Origin: a virus
Taxonomy: Duplodnaviria > Caudoviricetes
Direction: 5' to 3' (one strand)
Length of the DNA: 25,527 nucleotides
Virus record (IMG/VR): IMGVR_UViG_3300020160_000250
Span: 1-25,527 of that record
Made by a program: the position numbers and the translations under genes. The notes below the pieces were generated by a model. It worked only from the letters and a program-made list of their open reading frames with translations, did no database searches and had not been told where the DNA came from. Positions 8,101 through 25,269 of the stretch are shown here, piece by piece (within the stretch, counting starts at the first letter, position 1; every line of letters begins with the position of its first letter).

Positions 8101-10710
8101 AATGAGCATTACCGCCTGCTTATGCAGCGGATTGACGACGCCAAGTTCGACTCGAACGACGCTGTGAAGCTTAAGTCATCCATCGAGCAGATGTTTAATA
8201 AGGCTCGGGAACGCACGATCTACTTCCCCGTTAAACGATTCGGGGAGTACTGGCTCAGTGTAGGTAATGACTTCTACATGCGGGAGACCCCCGCAGAACT
8301 GAAAGCGCTACAGCGTAGGCTGAAGAAGGAAGGCGAAACCCGTGCGATGGTAACGGGTACTAGCCGTGCGGACCTACGTAACAAGGTCGCTAGTAATGAC
8401 GCCAGTGCAGCGCTCAAAGGTATTCTGGATGCCCTCGATGGTGGCAATACCGCCAAGAGCAACGGGAAGCCTAGGCTTGAGAGGGACGACATGGAGGGCC
8501 TGCGGGACCTCGTATTCCAGATGTACCTAACGGCACTACCTGAGGCAGATATGCGTCGGCGTTTTGTTCACCGTAGGTTTGTAACTGGTTTCAGCACCGA
8601 CTCGCTTCGCACGTTTGCTGCTACGGCAGTAGCGTCAGCGAACCAACTTGGGCGTCTGGCGTATAACTATAAGTTCCAGAACGTCATTGAAGAAGCTAAA
8701 GCGGAATCCGAAAGCGACGAACTAACCCCTTACCGCGATGCACTCCGGCTTGAAATCGAGGAGCGGGTGAAAAGCGCAGTGGCTCCTGAGTCGAACAGCA
8801 TCCTCCTTAACGCCATCAATAATGCGATAGCGTTCGGGTCTAAGCTTACATTCTACCACCACCTGTCTTCAATGGCATCTGCGGCGATTAACCTTACCCA
8901 GCTACACACTCTAGGGCTTCAAGTCCTGTCAGGTGAATTTGGTGAGGCCAAGACGGCAGCTATGGCTGCTCGGTACACAACTTCGTTATTGGCGGGCCGG
9001 GAAATCCCTAACCCGTTCCGCGACGAGGATGGTAACGTCGGGCTGCAAGCTCCGGAGTTTAAGTTCCAGAACAGCGCCTATATGCGTAACCTTAAGAAGA
9101 ACGACCCAGACCGCTACAAGCAGACGATGGCTGCATGGGAATACGCGCAAGACCATGACGTCATTGAGAGCACTTTCGCTTCGAGTAGCCAGCTGTATGA
9201 GCGTAGCAACACACCTACCGGGGACTTTAATTTCCGGCAGGCGGTACGCCGTGGTGAAGTATTGACCGCAGGTCAGCGGGCTGCTGCCAATACCATGAGT
9301 GCTATGGGTTTCTTGTTCCATTCGACTGAGACAATCGGGCGCAGTGTCATGTATATGTCCAGCTTCGATCTAGCGTATGAGCGGGCAATCGGTAAAGGTA
9401 AGACGCCGGAGCAAGCGGGTATAGAAGCCCGTAAGTTAGCGACTGACCTAACGAATAAGGCCATGTTCGACTTTACCAACTGGAATAAATCACGTTTTGC
9501 TAAAGCCCCTGCGACTCGTTTTGCGCTCCAGATGACTTCGTATATACATTCGCTATCGTCGCTAATGTTGCGTAGCTTTGTCGGTATGCTCCCGTACTTT
9601 AACAAAGAAGGCAAAGCAGCCGCAGCCCGTGTATTCTTCGGTTCTTCTGCCGTCACCGCGCTCTACGGTGGCGTACAGGCTACCCTGTTTGCTCCTTTAA
9701 TTATGGGTGCATTCACCGTCGCTAAGTATGTCGAAAGCTTGTTTGAGGATGATGACGATGAGGAAGAGGAAATCAAGGAAGGTGTCCTCGGTGAGAAAAC
9801 CGTCGAGCGCCAGTTCCTCAAATACGCAGACGAGAACGGGAACGAACTAGGTAAGAAGGATATGGATTACTATATCCGGGCGACCTTTATCCCTGAGACG
9901 TTTGGTAGGGAAAGCACCCTACAGAACGCACTTGGTCTCAGCGACAAGGCAGCAGCCAATTTGGCAACCGCTGCGGATAGCGGCATACCGGCAATCTTCG
10001 GTGTGGATATATCTAACTCCGTGGCCATGGGTGACTTGCCGTTTATCTGGAGTAATGTGCAGGTGAAGGGCGACACACCTGAAGTCCGAGCTTATGAAGC
10101 CGTGGCAAGGATGGCACTTGGTCCGTTTGGTAGCGTGGCTATTTCGTACCGTAAAGCGATTGACGCGTGGGAAAAAGGTGATGTCCAGCAGGCCGTGGAG
10201 TTGGCGGTTCCTGCAATTATCCGTAACCCACTGAAAGCCCTACGCCTCCAAGAGGAAGGGTTGAAGATCGGGAAAGACAAGGACATTCAGCTTAAGGACC
10301 CCAGCTACTATACCGGTGGTAAGACCTTTTTGCAGTCCCTCGGCTTTAAGGACGCTGAGACAACGCGTAATATGGAGCTTGATATAATGGCAGGTGCCGT
10401 TGAGCGGGAAGTCGCAGCGCAGAAGACCGAGCTACTTGATCGACGGTACCGTGCTATCCTTAAGTATGATGCAGACCCATCGGATAAAAACGAGCTTGAG
10501 TTGCAGCGGGTGGAATACGACATCAACGTATATGATGAGAACTACCCATCGAACTCAATATCCAAAGATACCAAGCGGAAGTCGTTCAAAGCTAAGGAGC
10601 AAGACGCTACTGGTAAAGCCTACGGTTTGGAGGTTAATCCGAAAATCCCGATCAGGGAAGTGCTACAGGAAGAGCGTATTCAGCAGCTTCTGGAGGCTGA
10701 AGGCCAATAA
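2176..10710 (+). CDS. Giant polyvalent (probably virion-ejected) protein, 2844 aa: GHKL ATPase + HExxH zincin peptidase + PLxRFG + LPD39-like C-terminal region
   Basis: GHKL motifs: EVLQNSFDA (5398), DNGIGM (5512), GGFGIA (5599), HGT (5797). Hsp90 middle-domain-like PFNFNRQ (~6220-6240). HELAHYKERSHNARF (6910). YFPVKRFGEY (8221) matches the PLxRFG motif of phage polyvalent proteins. N-terminal FRRQYPQYNDMSDVELAD and EEALQE motifs are also typical of such proteins. Confidence 0.85.
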   Translation: MDNLADFRRQYPQYNDMSDVELADAIHRKFYSDLPKAEVFKKLAVKPAGAVAVPTAAAPAALTPAQKQAVAQKTAERGFFGGVYDAVMGNEIEAPEVYTAKELAARQKQIAATLKKLGVDAKKYDTLAVSAAKEYQGPNAPDRALGFTQQAQAARSEAIALQNELDSITKTGLKVPKANKFRETLSSTLRVPAEIFAGIPGAIEATAGYGLGTFGIPGAETLKAAGKSDMARASELAAQGFGAQGEALKYDATAKFLADVGGGVGSVGTFLGPGLLSKAAGAGKGLVGAARAEAIAKAARPLEYGLGTVQGAQQGIQDIQATEQRTGKVIPDANAFTAIVLSAGMGATEVGAARRIFESLPVAKRGATLDTVTDIVRRGTAGRVDPKVISEAVKRTLNTIESRAVGRVAVRGAEEALQEGGVQFGTNVIAKGLYDEDRNVTEGVGYSMLIGGIVGSGLRGVTEVAQKALGKAKAQGVDPAAVMAEFQRLAAEQAGRVMKANPGMKQNDAVKFVEDNAEALFNLATANIVSGTKGVLDVPVTTGAGVDDLGGSGAGTAIDRESLATEAGTTVAGADDDGRLDRSVSGVSVPTTGTGTGVGTLIEPTAKQVKAMVPTIEQAFKASALDFEEAYADVLDKNNKLNSQQKTLAARILVQSPEVDPYDAIGSVLDRGLETLLGKPVPKKVPSTSRTTVTPTTPTTQATPVRDDTIIGAIYDAKNNERNPLTYEDLIDQLDFLETLATEGKLTPERLAFSDFGQVQDTGTLTGLKNRIAADPVGTIQRLRESAELNNQRDMAEAAPVEAVQDEAAPAGTPVELVPYKDIALSTMWYKGGSQTAVAGNEKPAWVPDDVLEYDIPGRPRPTGDQSDVRVEQFTAKDGTVGTKVSVLVPTIDEVYGDRGNTAAATIWLRDADPKDIDSAVQTAEAVARWVADPNNSKAADGPLNQIADKAISFIATQSAPASVAAPTTAGAKPSKARGPSKVKAAGDKGAKAKAVKKVINSKPGKTVAEKIFNMAQAEVDAMPKEELDEQATPYSPEYETIRATPGINTKRMAKMLGPQLYGDPTNMGQVCIKEVLQNSFDATRTAVDKGQITQGKIEISISRDERTLTVKDNGIGMTPELLGGKFLQIAGTDKEGDKNAGGFGIAKMLFLYANKNIRVVTARDGRIAELNATGEQLFDGLDDPDARPFIDIRDLEPADYAAFPNGHGTIIQLTIPEESGDYKINPLPWQAQSVPSLMLSPLFADIEVSFSDYTGSRAYAVDIGSNFPIQDYTQFVGVKFPWGTAKVYVTRNQTTQKYGQNMHILSNGLWQFSNSVSKDPSNIYSDPVPYRFYVDIVPSVKPDEPGYPFNFNRQSFTDDAKADFNKVKAYIDAVYAYKSRAGEATSFGVIQYFDENGQLTAPIDLTPDIPVVDTAFTRIAEGDIIKIDDDGSLLVNGQRMPELTPEELKAGIPSANDLRINPDLIDTNLVMVHDNADVVIKSTGEKMPIPDFMRRQFGERFDDFMSFNGEAFLKLRDEVARVMGYPGLRDEAIGVSFDPEYRGVSIRLPFSGSFINPLVPKYADGLRAGYGIFGTMIHELAHYKERSHNARFPAEYQDIDLNMEADTGFAYRRFKDNFADTIAADYADIVKLGVELFNGQNSDISIEYRGNKFTDGDAEQTSDGDGDRNAGDVRGPSGEGSTGESLLSPSYEGRDRTGERGDLGAGDGGGTEPLTDANVEEAVSVKLTKAQIKRLEAAAGIRGMEVNRLQKRIIQSRNENETKGLIKRLAEAMRNPDANSGIIASLTQSMPVGGYRLILGFQQIEDIFRLAKLAGMKSIGKIDTIMREEYIPYVNRIVRRASTVEQEWTAFASRDPDGNTALDDNIMYSNMIDADPSLAVTAAEYMRIDPKLKELEASLATEADANKRKSLKGQITTRKDDIKRLYFGGTLKDTNGDPVLDEDGNPVVVLGWNSLAPEGRKIFKAARDFHRANFNEHYRLLMQRIDDAKFDSNDAVKLKSSIEQMFNKARERTIYFPVKRFGEYWLSVGNDFYMRETPAELKALQRRLKKEGETRAMVTGTSRADLRNKVASNDASAALKGILDALDGGNTAKSNGKPRLERDDMEGLRDLVFQMYLTALPEADMRRRFVHRRFVTGFSTDSLRTFAATAVASANQLGRLAYNYKFQNVIEEAKAESESDELTPYRDALRLEIEERVKSAVAPESNSILLNAINNAIAFGSKLTFYHHLSSMASAAINLTQLHTLGLQVLSGEFGEAKTAAMAARYTTSLLAGREIPNPFRDEDGNVGLQAPEFKFQNSAYMRNLKKNDPDRYKQTMAAWEYAQDHDVIESTFASSSQLYERSNTPTGDFNFRQAVRRGEVLTAGQRAAANTMSAMGFLFHSTETIGRSVMYMSSFDLAYERAIGKGKTPEQAGIEARKLATDLTNKAMFDFTNWNKSRFAKAPATRFALQMTSYIHSLSSLMLRSFVGMLPYFNKEGKAAAARVFFGSSAVTALYGGVQATLFAPLIMGAFTVAKYVESLFEDDDDEEEEIKEGVLGEKTVERQFLKYADENGNELGKKDMDYYIRATFIPETFGRESTLQNALGLSDKAAANLATAADSGIPAIFGVDISNSVAMGDLPFIWSNVQVKGDTPEVRAYEAVARMALGPFGSVAISYRKAIDAWEKGDVQQAVELAVPAIIRNPLKALRLQEEGLKIGKDKDIQLKDPSYYTGGKTFLQSLGFKDAETTRNMELDIMAGAVEREVAAQKTELLDRRYRAILKYDADPSDKNELELQRVEYDINVYDENYPSNSISKDTKRKSFKAKEQDATGKAYGLEVNPKIPIREVLQEERIQQLLEAEGQ

Positions 10711-10740
10711 AAACCCCCGGCTGAGTGAGCAACCGGGGGT
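10706..10740 (-). terminator. Intrinsic (Rho-independent) terminator of the - strand arm / candidate sRNA
   Basis: Minus strand reads ACCCCCGGTTG-ctcact-CAGCCGGGGGT (11-bp stem with one G-U pair) followed by TTTTATT. It lies at the point where the two arms converge. Confidence 0.85.
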
Positions 10741-10781
10741 AGTGAGTGATGCGATGCACCGATAGGAAGGAGCAAACTTCC
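10706..10781 (-). ncRNA. Candidate ~76-nt antisense regulatory small RNA (anti-SD hairpin + anti-primase-start segment + terminator)
   Basis: Sequence GGAAGUUUGCUCCUUCC-UAUC-GGUGCAUCGCAUCACUCAC-U-terminator. Complementary to several RBSs in this window and to the primase start. A promoter-like element lies 7 nt upstream. Confidence 0.6.
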
Positions 10782-10787
10782 GAGGGC

Positions 10788-10816
10788 TATATACTTACAT
10801 CCGCCATACTCGTAAA
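10788..10816 (-). promoter_or_regulatory. Putative sigma70-type promoter for the candidate sRNA
   Basis: TTTACG (10816-10811), a 17-nt spacer, then TATATA (10793-10788). The predicted +1 near 10781 coincides with the first G of the 5' hairpin. Each hexamer matches consensus at only 4/6. Confidence 0.45.
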
Positions 10817-10989
10817 CCCCTAATCCCACTTTCGATTGAGGGCTTGACCAATATCTTGATACGTAGGCGTTTGATGACTACCATCAGTTGTGCCCGAGCG
10901 CGTGGTACATGGAGGCAAGGGAAGAACAAAGAAGTGCCCCTCTGGAATGCGCGCCAGTTAACTTCATAGTCTATACCCTCAATCTGCAT
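10795..10989 (-). CDS. Small basic hypothetical phage protein (64 aa), C-terminal GxRVWR motif
   Basis: Overlaps the primase 3' end (coupled arrangement). Ends in GIRGLRVWRM, a motif type seen in small phage proteins, possibly DNA-binding. Confidence 0.65.
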   Translation of the reverse strand: MQIEGIDYEVNWRAFQRGTSLFFPCLHVPRARAQLMVVIKRLRIKILVKPSIESGIRGLRVWRM

Positions 10990-13822
10990 CTATTATACCA
11001 TCTTCCTTGGCGTACTCATTGACGCTTACAAAGTCTGGGTCCAGCTTGAACCACAGGCAGTGGACGTTATCCCCTGAGACAGCCATACCCTTGGACATAC
11101 GCTTGTTGTCACGATTCACTAACCGACCTTGTGCCGCTAACTTGTCTAGAGTGTCGTTGTAATTGATCTGGTACTTGACGCAGTACTCCCTAAACGGTTT
11201 GGCAATAAGGAACATCATCTCGGTATCTGGTTCGATACGGATCAGCAACTCACCCTTTGGTTCGCGTATAGGCGCAGATGGCAGTTTGGTGCGGCGGTCT
11301 GACTTGTCGTTCACAACTAAGATATTCTGCATATGGCGATACAGGTAGTCACCTATAACCTGCTCAACACCGTTAAGTGGTGCCTTGGTATCTTGACGAA
11401 GCCGCTCAACTATATCGCAAGCGTGTCCGTAGATGCGCTTCATATTCCAGTCGATCAAGCCGCACTTCTTAGCGAGGATACCACCTTCGATATTAGCTGC
11501 TACTGTGGCTGACCAGAAGCGCTCCTTAGGTAGAAGCTGAAGCTCACGGTCAATCTTGTCCTGCATCTGGAGACACTTACCCACCACGTATTCCATGTTG
11601 TTTAGCACATAGCGAATGTAAACAGGTCCGGCGTGGCCGTAATTAGAGAACAGCACCTTATCAAATAACTCTTTGGCATTTGCGGTATTGATGGAGTCTA
11701 CCAACCCTATCGGGTATTCGATAAGGCGCATAAGCTCACCTTCTGGGTTATCCTTCAAGATCGACAACTTCTCAACAAACGAAGAGTTCGACGTCGAAAC
11801 CGTAATGTTCTGCCATGTGGTATTGTTCTCACGCAGTTCGTTGGCCCCAGCCAACATGCGTTCCTTACCCTTACCGTTCGACAGCGAGTATAAGAAGTCT
11901 GAGTATTCCTTAGATGTTACGTTGGTAAGCTCGTCCATGGTGGCTGGCAGATTGTTGAGGACGCCGACCCACTGAAGCTTACCGTTCATGGTGTCGATTT
12001 CTTTCAAGCGCAGTTGTTGGGGATGCCCATAGACGCTGTTCACCATGTTCAAGATGGTGGTCTTACCCGTACCAGAGTGGGAGTTAAACAGGTTGATGAC
12101 GGCCCCTGTCTGGTTAAGAAACTTTAGCAGCGGTGACCCGAACGCGCTTAGCGCAGCAAATGCTTGGGCTTCCATGCCCTCCTCGCCATACAAGCTCCAC
12201 ACGCTTTTCCATTTATCCATCGACCCAACAGGACCAATAAACTTAGCCAGCTTACCCGTTGCCTTAGACGGCGGCGAATAGATATTGCCGTCGATGGTCA
12301 TCTCCTGATCGCCTAAAACAAACCGGCTGTTGCCGTCTACCCAACCAAATTGTTGCCTCATGATTTCTGCTTTCTGTCTATCTTGTAAGTTTTCAGCGGA
12401 TGCGTGTACATATTCCATCAGCGTATCGAAACGCTTGCCGTAGCTATACACCCCGTTGGCGGAGAGTATCTTGCGAAGCTCATCCTTCTGGGTAACCTTG
12501 GACATGGCAACGGTAAATTCCCGTAAACCGTCTTGCGGTAGGTGTACGCGCATAAGCGCGGAGTCGCCCTCACCGGGATCGTACATACGTTTCACAACAT
12601 AGAAATCGTTTGCGTATACCATCTTCGGTTCGACTTCTTCGACTGAATCCTTGGGAGGCTTCTTCCAAACACCACCGCCATCGCCCCTGTAGAACGGGAA
12701 CGGATACTTAGGGATGTCGATATGCTCGACCACACCCTCTTCAGTTTCTACCTTGATGAAGTCCTCGCTGGACTCCTTGACCACCTTGCCCAGTTCCTTG
12801 GGGCCTTTGATTTTGTCGAGGTGTGGACACCCCTCACATAGCTCTTGGTTAACGCTACGAAACTTGGCGCAGCTAGTTGACTTGCGGATCGTTTCAACTT
12901 TCCGGTCTATGGACTCTGGATCGTAGTCTGGGTGACCCTTCGACATCATATGGACCGCAGTGTCTGCGTCCTCGCACATAGCTGCCACTGACAGCGCGTA
13001 GAACCATTCGTAGTAACTAACGGTATCTTGGTTCGTATATGCGTGTAGGAGTTGGTTACACCCATCGCCCCTAGCTGTGCGCTGCATGATTTGTTTGAAG
13101 TTGTAGCCTATACCATTTGTCAGTGCCAGTTGGCGTGGTGACGGTTGGTAATCCTCATCGAAGATTGTCGGCTGCGCCTTGACCCCAAAGATGGCGCGCA
13201 CCTCCTCAAAGGAAATCGGCTTACCCACATGGATAAACTCAACCAGACGAGGCTCTTCCTCTTTGAAGTTAAACGTACCGGGCACACGTAGGATACGTGC
13301 CACTTCGAACACCGCGTTATCGACGTAGAAGTTCTGGGTTTGGCACACTTCCTTGAAGCGCTCTGCTACAGGTTCCCAGTCCCGCCGTGTGATTTCTTCC
13401 GTAAGCGCCCAGTATACGTGGATGCCACCACCTGAGTTTACTATGGTAGGAGTAGGAAGACCGACGGATTCACAAAAAGTACGCAGCGCCGCTATGGCAG
13501 CAGTTTGGTCTACGTAACCATCAGGTCGTCCAGTCTTCGGGTCGGGTTCAGCTTTGGTCGGGCCGCAGTCCACATCGAGCCAGAACGCCTTGAGACCAAG
13601 GACATTCTCCTTCTTGCGGTTGTCACCAGTTGCATACTTGGCTACCCCAAAGAATACATTTCGGCCAGCATCGACGAAGCGCTCTATTAAAGCATCTGCT
13701 TCTTCCCGCGTAGCTACAAGTTCTTGGCGGACATCGGCGTCTTTCCCCGTCCCTTTGATACCTGTGATAGCGAACCAGCCCCCCGCTGGCTGCACGAGGC
13801 TTAAGAGATCATATTGTTGCAT
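10979..13822 (-). CDS. Primase-helicase: AEP/RepB-type primase + Cys-rich PriCT/PriL-like region + DUF927/Cch-like helicase
   Basis: AEP motifs FWLDVD, SGGGIHVYW and RILRVPGTFN. Cys cluster (SCAKF...CEGCPH). RQQFGW, Walker A SGTGKTT, Walker B TMDE and GKGKER/STSN typical of DUF927 helicases. Preferred start is the ATG at 13822 (GGTGAG SD-like 7 nt upstream); the alternative is the GTG at 13834. Confidence 0.85.
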   Translation of the reverse strand: MQQYDLLSLVQPAGGWFAITGIKGTGKDADVRQELVATREEADALIERFVDAGRNVFFGVAKYATGDNRKKENVLGLKAFWLDVDCGPTKAEPDPKTGRPDGYVDQTAAIAALRTFCESVGLPTPTIVNSGGGIHVYWALTEEITRRDWEPVAERFKEVCQTQNFYVDNAVFEVARILRVPGTFNFKEEEPRLVEFIHVGKPISFEEVRAIFGVKAQPTIFDEDYQPSPRQLALTNGIGYNFKQIMQRTARGDGCNQLLHAYTNQDTVSYYEWFYALSVAAMCEDADTAVHMMSKGHPDYDPESIDRKVETIRKSTSCAKFRSVNQELCEGCPHLDKIKGPKELGKVVKESSEDFIKVETEEGVVEHIDIPKYPFPFYRGDGGGVWKKPPKDSVEEVEPKMVYANDFYVVKRMYDPGEGDSALMRVHLPQDGLREFTVAMSKVTQKDELRKILSANGVYSYGKRFDTLMEYVHASAENLQDRQKAEIMRQQFGWVDGNSRFVLGDQEMTIDGNIYSPPSKATGKLAKFIGPVGSMDKWKSVWSLYGEEGMEAQAFAALSAFGSPLLKFLNQTGAVINLFNSHSGTGKTTILNMVNSVYGHPQQLRLKEIDTMNGKLQWVGVLNNLPATMDELTNVTSKEYSDFLYSLSNGKGKERMLAGANELRENNTTWQNITVSTSNSSFVEKLSILKDNPEGELMRLIEYPIGLVDSINTANAKELFDKVLFSNYGHAGPVYIRYVLNNMEYVVGKCLQMQDKIDRELQLLPKERFWSATVAANIEGGILAKKCGLIDWNMKRIYGHACDIVERLRQDTKAPLNGVEQVIGDYLYRHMQNILVVNDKSDRRTKLPSAPIREPKGELLIRIEPDTEMMFLIAKPFREYCVKYQINYNDTLDKLAAQGRLVNRDNKRMSKGMAVSGDNVHCLWFKLDPDFVSVNEYAKEDGIIDAD

Positions 13823-13838
13823 TGCATCACTCACCGTT

Positions 13839-13856
13839 GCGGGGGGAAACCCCCAC
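13839..13856 (-). promoter_or_regulatory. GC-rich hairpin in the primase 5' leader
   Basis: Minus strand gtGGGGG-TTT-CCCCCcgc immediately upstream of the primase initiation region. There is no U tract, so a translational or structural role is more likely than termination. Confidence 0.45.
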
Positions 13857-15462: not shown

Positions 15463-15496
15463 GGTTTGCTCCTTGCTCGGCTATTGCCGTAGTCTT

Positions 15497-17324: not shown

Positions 17325-17341
17325 AGTTTGCTCCTAGTGGG

Positions 17342-18811: not shown

Positions 18812-18823
18812 TTCATTTGCTCC

Positions 18824-21324: not shown

Positions 21325-23137
21325 AGCTTGCTCCTATTTTGCTTTCACAATTCAACGGTAGCGTTGGTGCCCACTTGGGGCGCATGCGCATGCATGCTTC
21401 CACAAACGCACGAGCCTTGTCGGCTTCCTCAGTAGGGGCAATCACCCCTATCGCGTCATGCACGGTCATCACCACGCGGTAGCGCCGTGCGATCATCAGC
21501 ATCTGTTCACCTATTATAATACGTGCAAGGGCTTGGCATACGTTCTCTACTAGCTTCCCACCGTATATACGGGAGAGCAACACGGACTTGCCCTTCTTCT
21601 GGTCGTAGACCATCTCAGCTTTCTGCCCCTCTTCTGCTTTTAAGCGGCGCACGTTGTCGTACTTAACGAACAGGCCATTGGGTAACTCAATGCCATCCTT
21701 ACCGTGGACTACCAGCACATCGTTATGGCCCAAGGTGGTGTGTGTACCTAAAGATATAGAGTCCAGCACATCGTTCGCGTCATCCCACAGGTCGGGTATC
21801 TTTGGGTAGGTCTCACGATACACTCGGATAATACGCCTACACTCGGCCATTTCCATATCGACGCCGAAGGTCTTTAGCTGCGCCTTAAACTTGGCAGCAC
21901 CCATCCCGTAACCACAGCCAAGGATGGTAGTCTTCCCCACAAAGCGTTGGTCATCCGTCACCTCCTCGACAGGCACAGTATAGATAGAGCTTGCCATAAT
22001 CTTGTAGACATCCTCGCCTCGGTCAAACGCAGCAATAAGGTCATCTTGCCCAGCCAGCCACGCTAAGGTTCGCGCTTCGATCTGGCTGCTATCGCAGTCG
22101 ATGAACGTGTAGCCCTCTGGGGCCAACATCGCCTTTTTCAGTGGTGACTTGCGCGGTAGGTTCTGGAGGTTGACCTTATCGTCCCCTCCCCATCGCCCAG
22201 TATGTGCAGCATAGTAACGTAGCGGCACAGGTAATGTGCCTCGCTCTGCGATCTTAATGAACCGTTCGGTGCGTGTCTCTTCCAGCGTAGACTTAACGCC
22301 CAGCCGCGCAGCCGCTACCGCTTGCACTCGCGGGTCGGGATGCTCAAGTAATGCCTTGAACCCCTCGTCACTCTTGGCGAAGGCGAATGCTTCCTTGCCT
22401 GTCTTGGCGCTCACCTTCACAGGTGGGACGACACCCATGGCGCTCAGTAAGCAAGCCAGCTTAGGGTTGGACATCAGCGCGTCCTTATCTACCACGATAG
22501 CATCCATGAGTTTGGCTTTTTTGCTCCTCACATTAGACACGTGGTTTGTGAGGACTTGTTTGTCTAAAACTAGCACTGGCTCGGTGAACATGCGTATCGT
22601 CAGGTCGATCAACCGAAACTCAACCGCTGGGAAACCCACAGCTATGCGTTGGAACAGGTCATAGGTCAGGTCCGCATCGTTGATACAGTATGTGCCATAT
22701 CGGGACATCTCTTTTGGCGTGAAGTCCAGTCGCCGTTTACCTAGCGCATTGATTACCTCTGTGCCTTTGACACCTAGTTTATACCGCTCGGCTGCTTTGG
22801 CTAAACTGTTACCAGCGTCAGGCCCGTCGATAGCTCGTAGCATAGAGAGCGTGTCCACAATCCGCTTGGGTCTAATATCGAAGTGCCAGTTCAAGATAGC
22901 CATATCGAAGACAGCGTTGTGCGCCACAGCGATAGCGTTGTCCCAGTCGAACTGATCCAGCCACCGTTTGGTTTGCGCCTTCGGGCCGGAGAAAAACTTA
23001 GCTTCCCCGGCGTCCACCTTTACTGCTACGCCAGTAACCTCAAACTCGGAGTCCCGGATATACTCCTCCGTTGTCATCTTAGAGAGACTAAACTTCTGGC
23101 TATAGAACGTCTCGAAGTCGATGGTTAGGATTTGCAT
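21314..23137 (-). CDS. polA: DNA polymerase family A with 3'-5' exonuclease (Leu762 type)
   Basis: Exo motifs DFET, HNAVFD and YCINDA. Polymerase motifs HTGRW, NLQNLP, DSSQIEAR (A), RFVGKTTILGCGYG (B) and TVHDA (C). Start placed at ATG 23137 (TAATG overlap). Confidence 0.93.
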   Translation of the reverse strand: MQILTIDFETFYSQKFSLSKMTTEEYIRDSEFEVTGVAVKVDAGEAKFFSGPKAQTKRWLDQFDWDNAIAVAHNAVFDMAILNWHFDIRPKRIVDTLSMLRAIDGPDAGNSLAKAAERYKLGVKGTEVINALGKRRLDFTPKEMSRYGTYCINDADLTYDLFQRIAVGFPAVEFRLIDLTIRMFTEPVLVLDKQVLTNHVSNVRSKKAKLMDAIVVDKDALMSNPKLACLLSAMGVVPPVKVSAKTGKEAFAFAKSDEGFKALLEHPDPRVQAVAAARLGVKSTLEETRTERFIKIAERGTLPVPLRYYAAHTGRWGGDDKVNLQNLPRKSPLKKAMLAPEGYTFIDCDSSQIEARTLAWLAGQDDLIAAFDRGEDVYKIMASSIYTVPVEEVTDDQRFVGKTTILGCGYGMGAAKFKAQLKTFGVDMEMAECRRIIRVYRETYPKIPDLWDDANDVLDSISLGTHTTLGHNDVLVVHGKDGIELPNGLFVKYDNVRRLKAEEGQKAEMVYDQKKGKSVLLSRIYGGKLVENVCQALARIIIGEQMLMIARRYRVVMTVHDAIGVIAPTEEADKARAFVEACMRMRPKWAPTLPLNCESKIGASYGG

Positions 23138-23471: not shown

Positions 23472-23788
23472 CTGCTTTGCTCCCTCAGTCTGCGTTTCCT
23501 ATTCTCAAAAAACTTAAGCAGTGCCTTGAGTAGTGCAGCCGAGCCTTCCTTGGCGTTCTTATTCCACTTGCGTTCGGAGTCGCTGTTCAGTCCCGTAGAG
23601 TTAGCGTTAGGCTTCGCGGTTGTTGCATGTTCTACCTCTGGTCGCACCACTTCGACCTTCCTCTTTGTGCCCTTCTTTATCTTATCGCGCAGGGCGATAA
23701 CACGTTTCACATCCACACCATGATAAGTCGCGATATACTTATTGTCGGTTATGTAGCTCATTGTCTTGAGGATATCTTGGTCGGTCAT
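23468..23788 (-). CDS. Hypothetical basic protein (106 aa)
   Basis: AGGAG SD and ATGA overlap with the VRR-NUC gene. Confidence 0.65.
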   Translation of the reverse strand: MTDQDILKTMSYITDNKYIATYHGVDVKRVIALRDKIKKGTKRKVEVVRPEVEHATTAKPNANSTGLNSDSERKWNKNAKEGSAALLKALLKFFENRKRRLREQSR

Positions 23789-24102: not shown

Positions 24103-24124
24103 GTTGTTTGCTCCTTGTTTATGT

Positions 24125-25078: not shown

Positions 25079-25269
25079 CAGTAGTCTCCTTCTTCTAATT
25101 TCTTCATTGCAATAACGTAGGCGTCTAGCTCGTCACGAGCCGCGATGTTGGGAAGCACATACTTCAAGCCAGTGCGGCCATCTCGGTAATACACTGCGAA
25201 GTATGTTGTCCCCGCATATCCTCTCCGATGCCATGCCGACACCTCGTATATCTGGTGCTCACCACTCAT
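25078..25269 (-). CDS. Hypothetical protein (63 aa)
   Basis: Overlaps both neighbours in a coupled arrangement. Confidence 0.6.
   Translation of the reverse strand: MSGEHQIYEVSAWHRRGYAGTTYFAVYYRDGRTGLKYVLPNIAARDELDAYVIAMKKLEEGDY

Follow-up and report, generated by a model that had tools for sequence, protein, structure and literature searches.

What lies in the short gap between two gene arms that run toward each other in a tailed phage, and does it do more than end transcription? The DNA analyzed here (IMG/VR virus record IMGVR_UViG_3300020160_000250, 25,527 nucleotides [nt]; hereafter the window) is a whole phage contig in which a structural arm and a replication arm converge on an element of about 76 nt. 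The original prediction described this element as a candidate self-contained small RNA (sRNA) that could silence many targets by antisense pairing. Conserved structure, co-variation with the presumed targets, a promoter, and recurring pairing of a central linker segment all support that description. On these sequence comparisons, we consider it likely that the element is a phage-encoded, trans-acting, multi-target antisense sRNA that damps translation of early and replication genes.

Structure and conservation of the element

The element (10781-10706, - strand) lies directly past a 64-aa gene and has three parts: a hairpin (5-bp stem, UUUGCUC loop), a linker, and an intrinsic terminator; it overlaps the opposite-strand gene by 5 nt only. 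The sequence and the promoter hexamers first read here, TTTACG and TATATA with a 17-nt spacer, were confirmed, as was the 7-nt spacing that follows, the first G of the hairpin being the seventh base past the -10 hexamer. The predicted fold has an energy of -30.8 kcal/mol (z = -5.0), which none of 200 shuffled sequences equaled. Hairpin and terminator were thus borne out as parts of the proposed three-part RNA; the linker is not purely single-stranded, because a weak 5-bp hairpin is predicted inside it. The 5' stem is also weak (-3.7 kcal/mol). U-G pairs in the terminator are valid only on the - strand and therefore fix the strand of the element.

The -35 hexamer is identical in 81 of 113 loci, and the Leu codon within it is TTA in 84/101 Leu codons compared with 7.8% in primase genes. 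A -10-like hexamer follows at a spacing of 16-18 nt in 112/113 loci when the best fit is picked by script (a strict -10 match is present in only 46/113), and the hairpin starts 6-7 nt past it in 81/113. The predicted promoter is therefore conserved beyond what the codons need. The window copy fails a strict sigma-70 scan because its -10 hexamer lacks the last T; promoters of alphaproteobacteria typically lack the -7 T, a weak hint on the host only (PMC8407463). The promoter motif occurs once in the window and was not found to recur as an early or late phage promoter, so it is silent on timing. Eight relatives (L147, L156, L194, L201, L205, L212, L227, and L232) have an additional hairpin between the promoter and the hairpin described above, and in L147 its loop also has GCUCC. 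In L052 and L068/L160, a second full copy of the sequence complementary to the ribosome-binding-site tag described below sits in the terminator loop.

The 17-base hairpin was found in 119 IMG/VR stretches and, as judged by reading, the same anatomy surrounds it in 74 of 86 distinct contexts and is absent in 12. A pattern for other loops returned 79 stretches; these gave 39 distinct new contexts, every one of them past the same gene end. Protein-based searches that used no RNA query recovered the element in 52/56 loci found by the primase and 68/78 found by the small gene, counts that include redundant contigs. Among 56 distinct rows with the UUUGCUC loop, 98.4% of stem cells pair, and both sides of the stem have changed in 57 cells compared with 10.4 in shuffles (0/500 reach it), a count inflated by related sequences. 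Alternative 5' stems include GAGAG/CTCTC (n = 7), GACAG/CTGTC (n = 5), and GCAAG/CTTGC (n = 4), with the loop invariant across the 57-row alignment, whose rows were selected for that loop. Each of 15 records, all chosen for carrying the hairpin, has one copy per genome. These data indicate a real, conserved, and probably functional RNA element.

The terminator can persist alone: relative L414 keeps it and has no hairpin. In L184, past the small gene, the usual 5' hairpin is replaced by one with a CCCUCCC-type loop complementary to the Shine-Dalgarno (SD) sequence; the terminator is kept and few starts have GGAGC. Near-identical elements stand next to primases that differ greatly, and primases that are nearly the same have unlike terminators (L024, L028, L067, L148, and L018/L016), which points to frequent recombination in the surroundings of the element. 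When the element was compared by blastn with 50,697 phage records, only chance matches came up, and the 64-aa protein had no match in a search for cultured carriers. The element is absent at the convergence points of the distant relatives Rollin and RHph_TM3_14A and of Pag-Yong1, a capsid relative. A metagenome scan with a promoter-plus-loop pattern returned 119 stretches from 11 of 64 parts, of which 2 pass a loose codon filter and neither has the full anatomy.

Loop and ribosome-binding-site tag

The loop and 3' arm of the hairpin are complementary to an extended ribosome-binding site (RBS), GGAGCAA, hereafter the tag. The window has 12 copies where 3.8 are expected (0/100 shuffles), and six are at - strand gene starts. 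Predicted duplexes with the hairpin range from -15 to -18 kcal/mol at these six starts compared with -7 to -14 at 19 others, and five more early starts with GGAGCAA are present in a longer record of the same phage. Across 14 near-complete genomes, for which a crude open reading frame (ORF) caller was used, the cognate 7-mer is found at 68/518 early-strand starts and 3/619 structural-strand starts. The claim that hairpin and linker complement translation starts in the window is upheld by this enrichment and by the linker match described below.

When the loop differs, the tag differs with it. Among GGAGC starts (104 of 114 representatives had sufficient flank), the next bases are AA in 192/237 for the UUUGCUC loop, GA in 14/33 for UCGCUC, and TA in 19/35 for UAGCUC; GA and TA follow in only 1/237 and 4/237 of the UUUGCUC class. 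The orthologous start of the Gam-like gene bears the tag cognate to the loop in 58/63, 11/12, and 7/12 loci of these three classes, respectively. UCGCUC and UAGCUC form separate 99-supported clades on a primase tree made by a quick method and therefore represent two independent events, not dozens. In two lineages, the hairpin binds its own Gam-like starts best (-18.0 and -19.3 kcal/mol). Opposite a stem G, the target base is C or T at 172/185 tagged sites compared with 94/168 untagged starts, matching G-U pairing. In 13 loci that lack the hairpin, two of which retain a degenerate form, GGAGC is found at 12/56 GGAG starts compared with 358/721 elsewhere, and at 0/4 in hairpin-less L414. Because the loop and the tag vary in step from lineage to lineage, a single RNA likely damps an entire class of phage genes. 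The expected covariation in relatives was thus seen for the loop, in two lineages, and much less for the linker.

Linker and primase start

Of the inverted repeats in the window, the one formed by the linker and the start of the primase gene heads the list (26 nt, 85%), with 20/24 ungapped matches that none of 1,000 shuffled linkers reached. The primase most likely begins at ATG 13822, so the linker would cover its SD and start codon. The reach once suggested for the RNA, much of the replication arm, would amount to this start and the six tagged ones, out of 22 scored starts on the - strand of the window.

Among relatives, linkers vary widely. Pairing with the primase start beats shuffles in 27 of 94 loci (3 short linkers were dropped) and, when foreign primases serve as the comparison, ranks within the best 10% in 24/94. 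It occurs with unlike sequences in about four primase clades (the window/L005, L016, L015, and L037 groups), and in the window/L005 group one change in the primase target is matched in the linker. The window-clade target 8-mer and linker 6-mer are present together in 13 loci, the linker alone in 5, the target alone in 1, and neither in 78; the five linker-only loci look like recombinants. No other universal linker target recurred: the primase was best in 19/68 loci, and any start reached p ≤ 0.05 in 22/68. Because the linker:primase pairing is partial and clade-limited, the linker would be an optional second seed.

The terminator stem-loop had been proposed as a further seed through UUGCUC and CUCACU. 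These motifs lie half within the stem and are not tracked by the primase start across relatives (loop and target both present in 9 loci, target only in 11, loop only in 8, neither in 69); this third seed is therefore without support and was rejected.

Three observations concern neighboring starts. A 63-aa ORF start at 25257-25269 (-) pairs with the whole RNA at -18.5 kcal/mol, nearly the primase level, and may be a second linker target. At 13840-13856 (-), immediately before the primase SD, is a 7-bp G-C hairpin, and most relatives have one like it ahead of the primase start. The sequence GAGCAAAC is just upstream of that hairpin.

Proposed mechanism and alternative explanations

By comparison of sequences, the element has what an sRNA would have: its own promoter, an intrinsic terminator, an intergenic position, and an exposed seed complementary to distant targets, kept by compensatory change in two independent cases, with exceptions. 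Transcription of the RNA would start at a host-type promoter that belongs to it, and processing of the replication mRNA at its 3' end may be a further source. The loop of the RNA would nucleate on the AAA, GA, or UA extension of GGAGC; the weak stem would then open, and the anti-SD arm would cover the SD (about 11 bp), likely blocking translation of tagged early and replication genes. In the window clade, the linker could act as the second seed that hides the primase start codon and its SD. Because overlapping genes follow several of the tagged ones in a run, translational coupling could widen the effect, but tags are present at closely spaced genes too (18/69 vs. 34/103). Least certain is the purpose, most likely negative feedback or timing: the RNA may limit synthesis of replication proteins as its own copies and those of the genome increase. 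No terminator is evident on the + strand, and late transcripts that read through the site could therefore neutralize the RNA as well.

A lysogeny role, also raised at the outset, found no support. Neither an integrase nor an antirepressor family was found among 64 of the 80 called proteins of the complete relative G005. A pattern search of 185,579 prokaryote genomes (GTDB) gave 22 matches, of which 2 are in the synteny of this phage, on a 61.7-kb phage-sized contig and an 8.3-kb contig, and neither is a clearly integrated copy. Feedback or timing in lytic growth is favored for these reasons.

Several results weigh against the proposed sRNA. The co-variation of loop and tag amounts to the two independent changes, the larger counts being relatives, and the C/T and A/G variants of the tag are plain transitions too. 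Predicted tags are found at 0/10 starts in the AAGCUC/AAAGCUC class and 1/18 in the AUGCUC class. Of 12 UCGCUC-clade loci, 6 have GGAGCAA at a neighboring gene and 1 has the predicted tag there, and in the UAGCUC clade the hairpin binds its own Gam-like starts at -12.9 kcal/mol, compared with -14.0 and -13.7 for foreign ones. Stem changes mostly fail to track the bases before GGAGC. For the linker, pairing is significant in only the 27 loci given above, and in the five linker-only loci a window-clade linker stands beside a non-matching primase.

The same pairing RNA might instead exclude superinfecting kin or hold a non-integrated carrier state, with diverged loop/tag pairs defining immunity groups. 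Those pairs are lineage-specific, with cognate preference in 2/3 lineages; the promoter is host-type, single in the window, and not a recurring phage promoter; and P22 Sar and BTP1 STnc6030 are precedents (PMC12197685). However, the resident genome carries the same tags on its own genes, the integrase and GTDB results offer nothing for a resident state, and the commonest loop is common to 82/141 loci, little diversification for an immunity system, which makes this purpose unlikely. A different possibility is that a protein reads the tag, imagined as RegB- or CsrA-like, and that a late + strand transcript displays a tag copy in a hairpin loop and titrates it. The 5' stem has no G-U pairs and therefore forms on both strands, the + strand fold has z = -3.0, an A-rich linker end that could terminate + strand transcription is present in 0/97 loci, and a decoy would predict loop/tag co-variation equally. 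Such a decoy is nevertheless quite improbable: promoter spacing and the terminator U-G pairs indicate the - strand, tag variants obey the wobble rules of a - strand RNA, and a decoy would leave unexplained why linkers in several clades match primase starts that are unrelated in sequence.

It is least probable that the terminator alone is functional and that hairpin and linker are a stabilizing structure of the 3' untranslated region or remnants left when start regions were duplicated in inverted orientation. A terminator is needed at the end of the replication operon in any case, L414 has one alone, the -35 hexamer overlaps conserved codons, and linkers vary widely; yet the loop is invariant within varying stems, its changes are mirrored by RBS changes of the same gene, and tags are few where the hairpin is absent and specific to one arm.

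The multi-target antisense sRNA would be a departure from known phage antisense RNAs, which mostly act on one gene, usually in lysogeny. If it is real, an abundant uncultured family has an RNA-level early-gene switch that works through a co-evolving RBS tag, and natural, partly orthogonal sRNA/RBS pairs become available for reporter work. A broader proposal is plausible, if rather short of probable: a lytic phage family schedules infection by one RNA that reads a lineage-specific RBS barcode of its whole early regulon, together with a repeatedly re-evolved primase seed, and similar reasoning would account for start-associated motifs in other phages that so far have no explanation.

Relation to known systems

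An Rfam 15 search over the whole window gave no match at E ≤ 1, including C4, alpha-r15/AbcR, and cuckoo, in keeping with the claim of an undescribed family. Literature searches over listings and abstracts also turned up no account of the element; the IMG/VR-built alignments of Fremin et al. 2023 (PMC10690425) were outside that search and may hold the motif among unannotated candidates. The available part of a 2025 review lists no such class-wide phage RNA (PMC12197685).

A close likeness in mechanism is to AbcR1/AbcR2 (alpha-r15) and NfeR1 of rhizobia, which have an anti-SD motif in a 5' hairpin loop, a second seed between stem-loops, and many targets repressed at the RBS (PMC8844928). They differ in being host RNAs of 114-121 nt that are Hfq-bound and direct a generic anti-SD motif at host transporter mRNAs (PMC8844928). 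Unlike AbcR, the element has a seed that would recognize an extension outside the SD, peculiar to the early genes of the phage itself, and it has no Rfam match.

Phage c4 is a short RNA with separate single-stranded seeds, and the CI RNA of P4 is related. As the element is predicted to do, c4 of P1/P7 represses translation of phage genes, but it controls one operon (icd-ant) and holds lysogeny (PMC8201110), whereas the predicted targets of the element are many and dispersed. Its neighbors are the primase gene, the 64-aa gene, and a structural gene, not icd/ant in an immunity operon. Sar (P22), OOP and aQ (lambda), and STnc6030 (BTP1) also come from phages and repress phage genes through base pairing, each being encoded opposite a single target (PMC12197685). 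The predicted targets of the element are instead on its own strand, 3-20 kb away (3-14 kb in the window), with pairing of 11-24 nt. We conclude by analogy that the element would work like AbcR-type anti-SD sRNAs and c4 and is a member of neither.

OppZ and CarZ are 3'-end-derived autoregulatory sRNAs. The element would resemble them in being an RNA at an operon 3' end with a common terminator and feedback on operon genes; unlike them, it has a conserved separate promoter and predicted targets across several operons.

In cluster K mycobacteriophages, start-associated sequences (SAS) form an extended RBS motif found at non-structural genes only; several genomes also have one reverse copy, and whether RNA or protein binds them was left open (PMC3203893). 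The arrangement is the same here, an extended RBS motif of non-structural genes plus a single reverse copy. SAS differ in being a 13-bp motif of temperate phages with no RNA partner described in the available text (PMC3203893), whereas the reverse copy in our element has a promoter, terminator, and co-variation. Only the AGGAGC core is common to the 13-bp consensus, and no repeat family like the flanking ESAS repeats appeared in a general repeat listing, which included no ESAS-specific search. The element offers a testable answer to the RNA-or-protein question that Pope et al. left for these sequences. On a spot check, one of three reverse SAS matches in MacnCheese (L550:1226-1280, gp5-gp6 gap) is within the loop of a long intergenic hairpin with perfect pairing; a spot check of Amgine gave no reverse SAS match.

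Genomic setting

Table 1. Positions of the element, its predicted targets, and the flanking genes in the window
Feature	Position	Strand	Remark
Predicted -35 hexamer, TTTACG	10811..10816	-	Overlaps Gly-Leu-Arg codons at the 3' end of the 64-aa gene
Predicted -10 hexamer, TATATA	10788..10793	-	Lacks last T; 17-nt spacer from -35
5' hairpin, 5-bp stem and 7-nt loop (10776-10770)	10765..10781	-	Loop and 3' arm complement the tagged RBS
Variable linker	10741..10764	-	Here complementary to primase SD and start codon
Intrinsic terminator, 11-bp stem and U tract	10706..10740 (stem-loop 10740-10713)	-	U tract overlaps stop codon of opposite-strand 2844-aa gene
DarB-like/ejected protein gene, 2844 aa	2176..10710	+	End of structural arm, converging on the element
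Conserved 64-aa gene, function unassigned	10795..10989	-	Last of replication arm; weak DUF7303 look-alike
DUF927 primase/helicase-like gene	10979..13834	-	Likely true start ATG at 13822; database form 947 aa
Predicted target of the linker, around primase SD and start codon	13809..13834	-	Strongest predicted binding of 25 starts, -19.7 kcal/mol
GGAGCAA tag, 134-aa Gam-like gene	15466..15472	-	Start that co-varies with loop
GGAGCAA tag, SNF2 helicase gene	17328..17334	-	43/56 orthologues in this loop class
GGAGCAA tag, DUF6378 gene	18817..18823	-	25/26 orthologues in this loop class
GGAGCAA tag, sigma-70 region 4 protein gene	21328..21334	-	
GGAGCAA tag, 69-aa gene	23477..23483	-	
GGAGCAA tag, 105-aa endonuclease/resolvase gene	24108..24114	-	

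The replication arm encodes DNA polymerase A, a sigma region 4 protein, an exonuclease, an SNF2 helicase, a Gam-like protein, an HTH protein, the DUF927 primase, and the 64-aa protein, and ends at 10795 (Table 1). For the 64-aa gene, 584 related stretches were confirmed. The 2844-aa protein of the structural arm has an HATPase_c domain, DarB-like similarity, and a weak match to virion RNA polymerase. No cultured relative of the window primase, polymerase, or helicase exceeds about 41% identity. Near-complete relatives are 60-67 kb long, and the capsid protein of relative G002 is 64-72% identical to the capsids of Pag-Yong1, DSL-LC04, and HTVC023P. Three records assigned to different cyanobacterial hosts (OQ594354.1, OL906435.1, and PP438419.1) have equal length (65,014) and equal capsid score. 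Phages of the family of the element are also binned into GTDB metagenome-assembled genomes of unrelated phyla (L338 and L347), likely by mis-binning.

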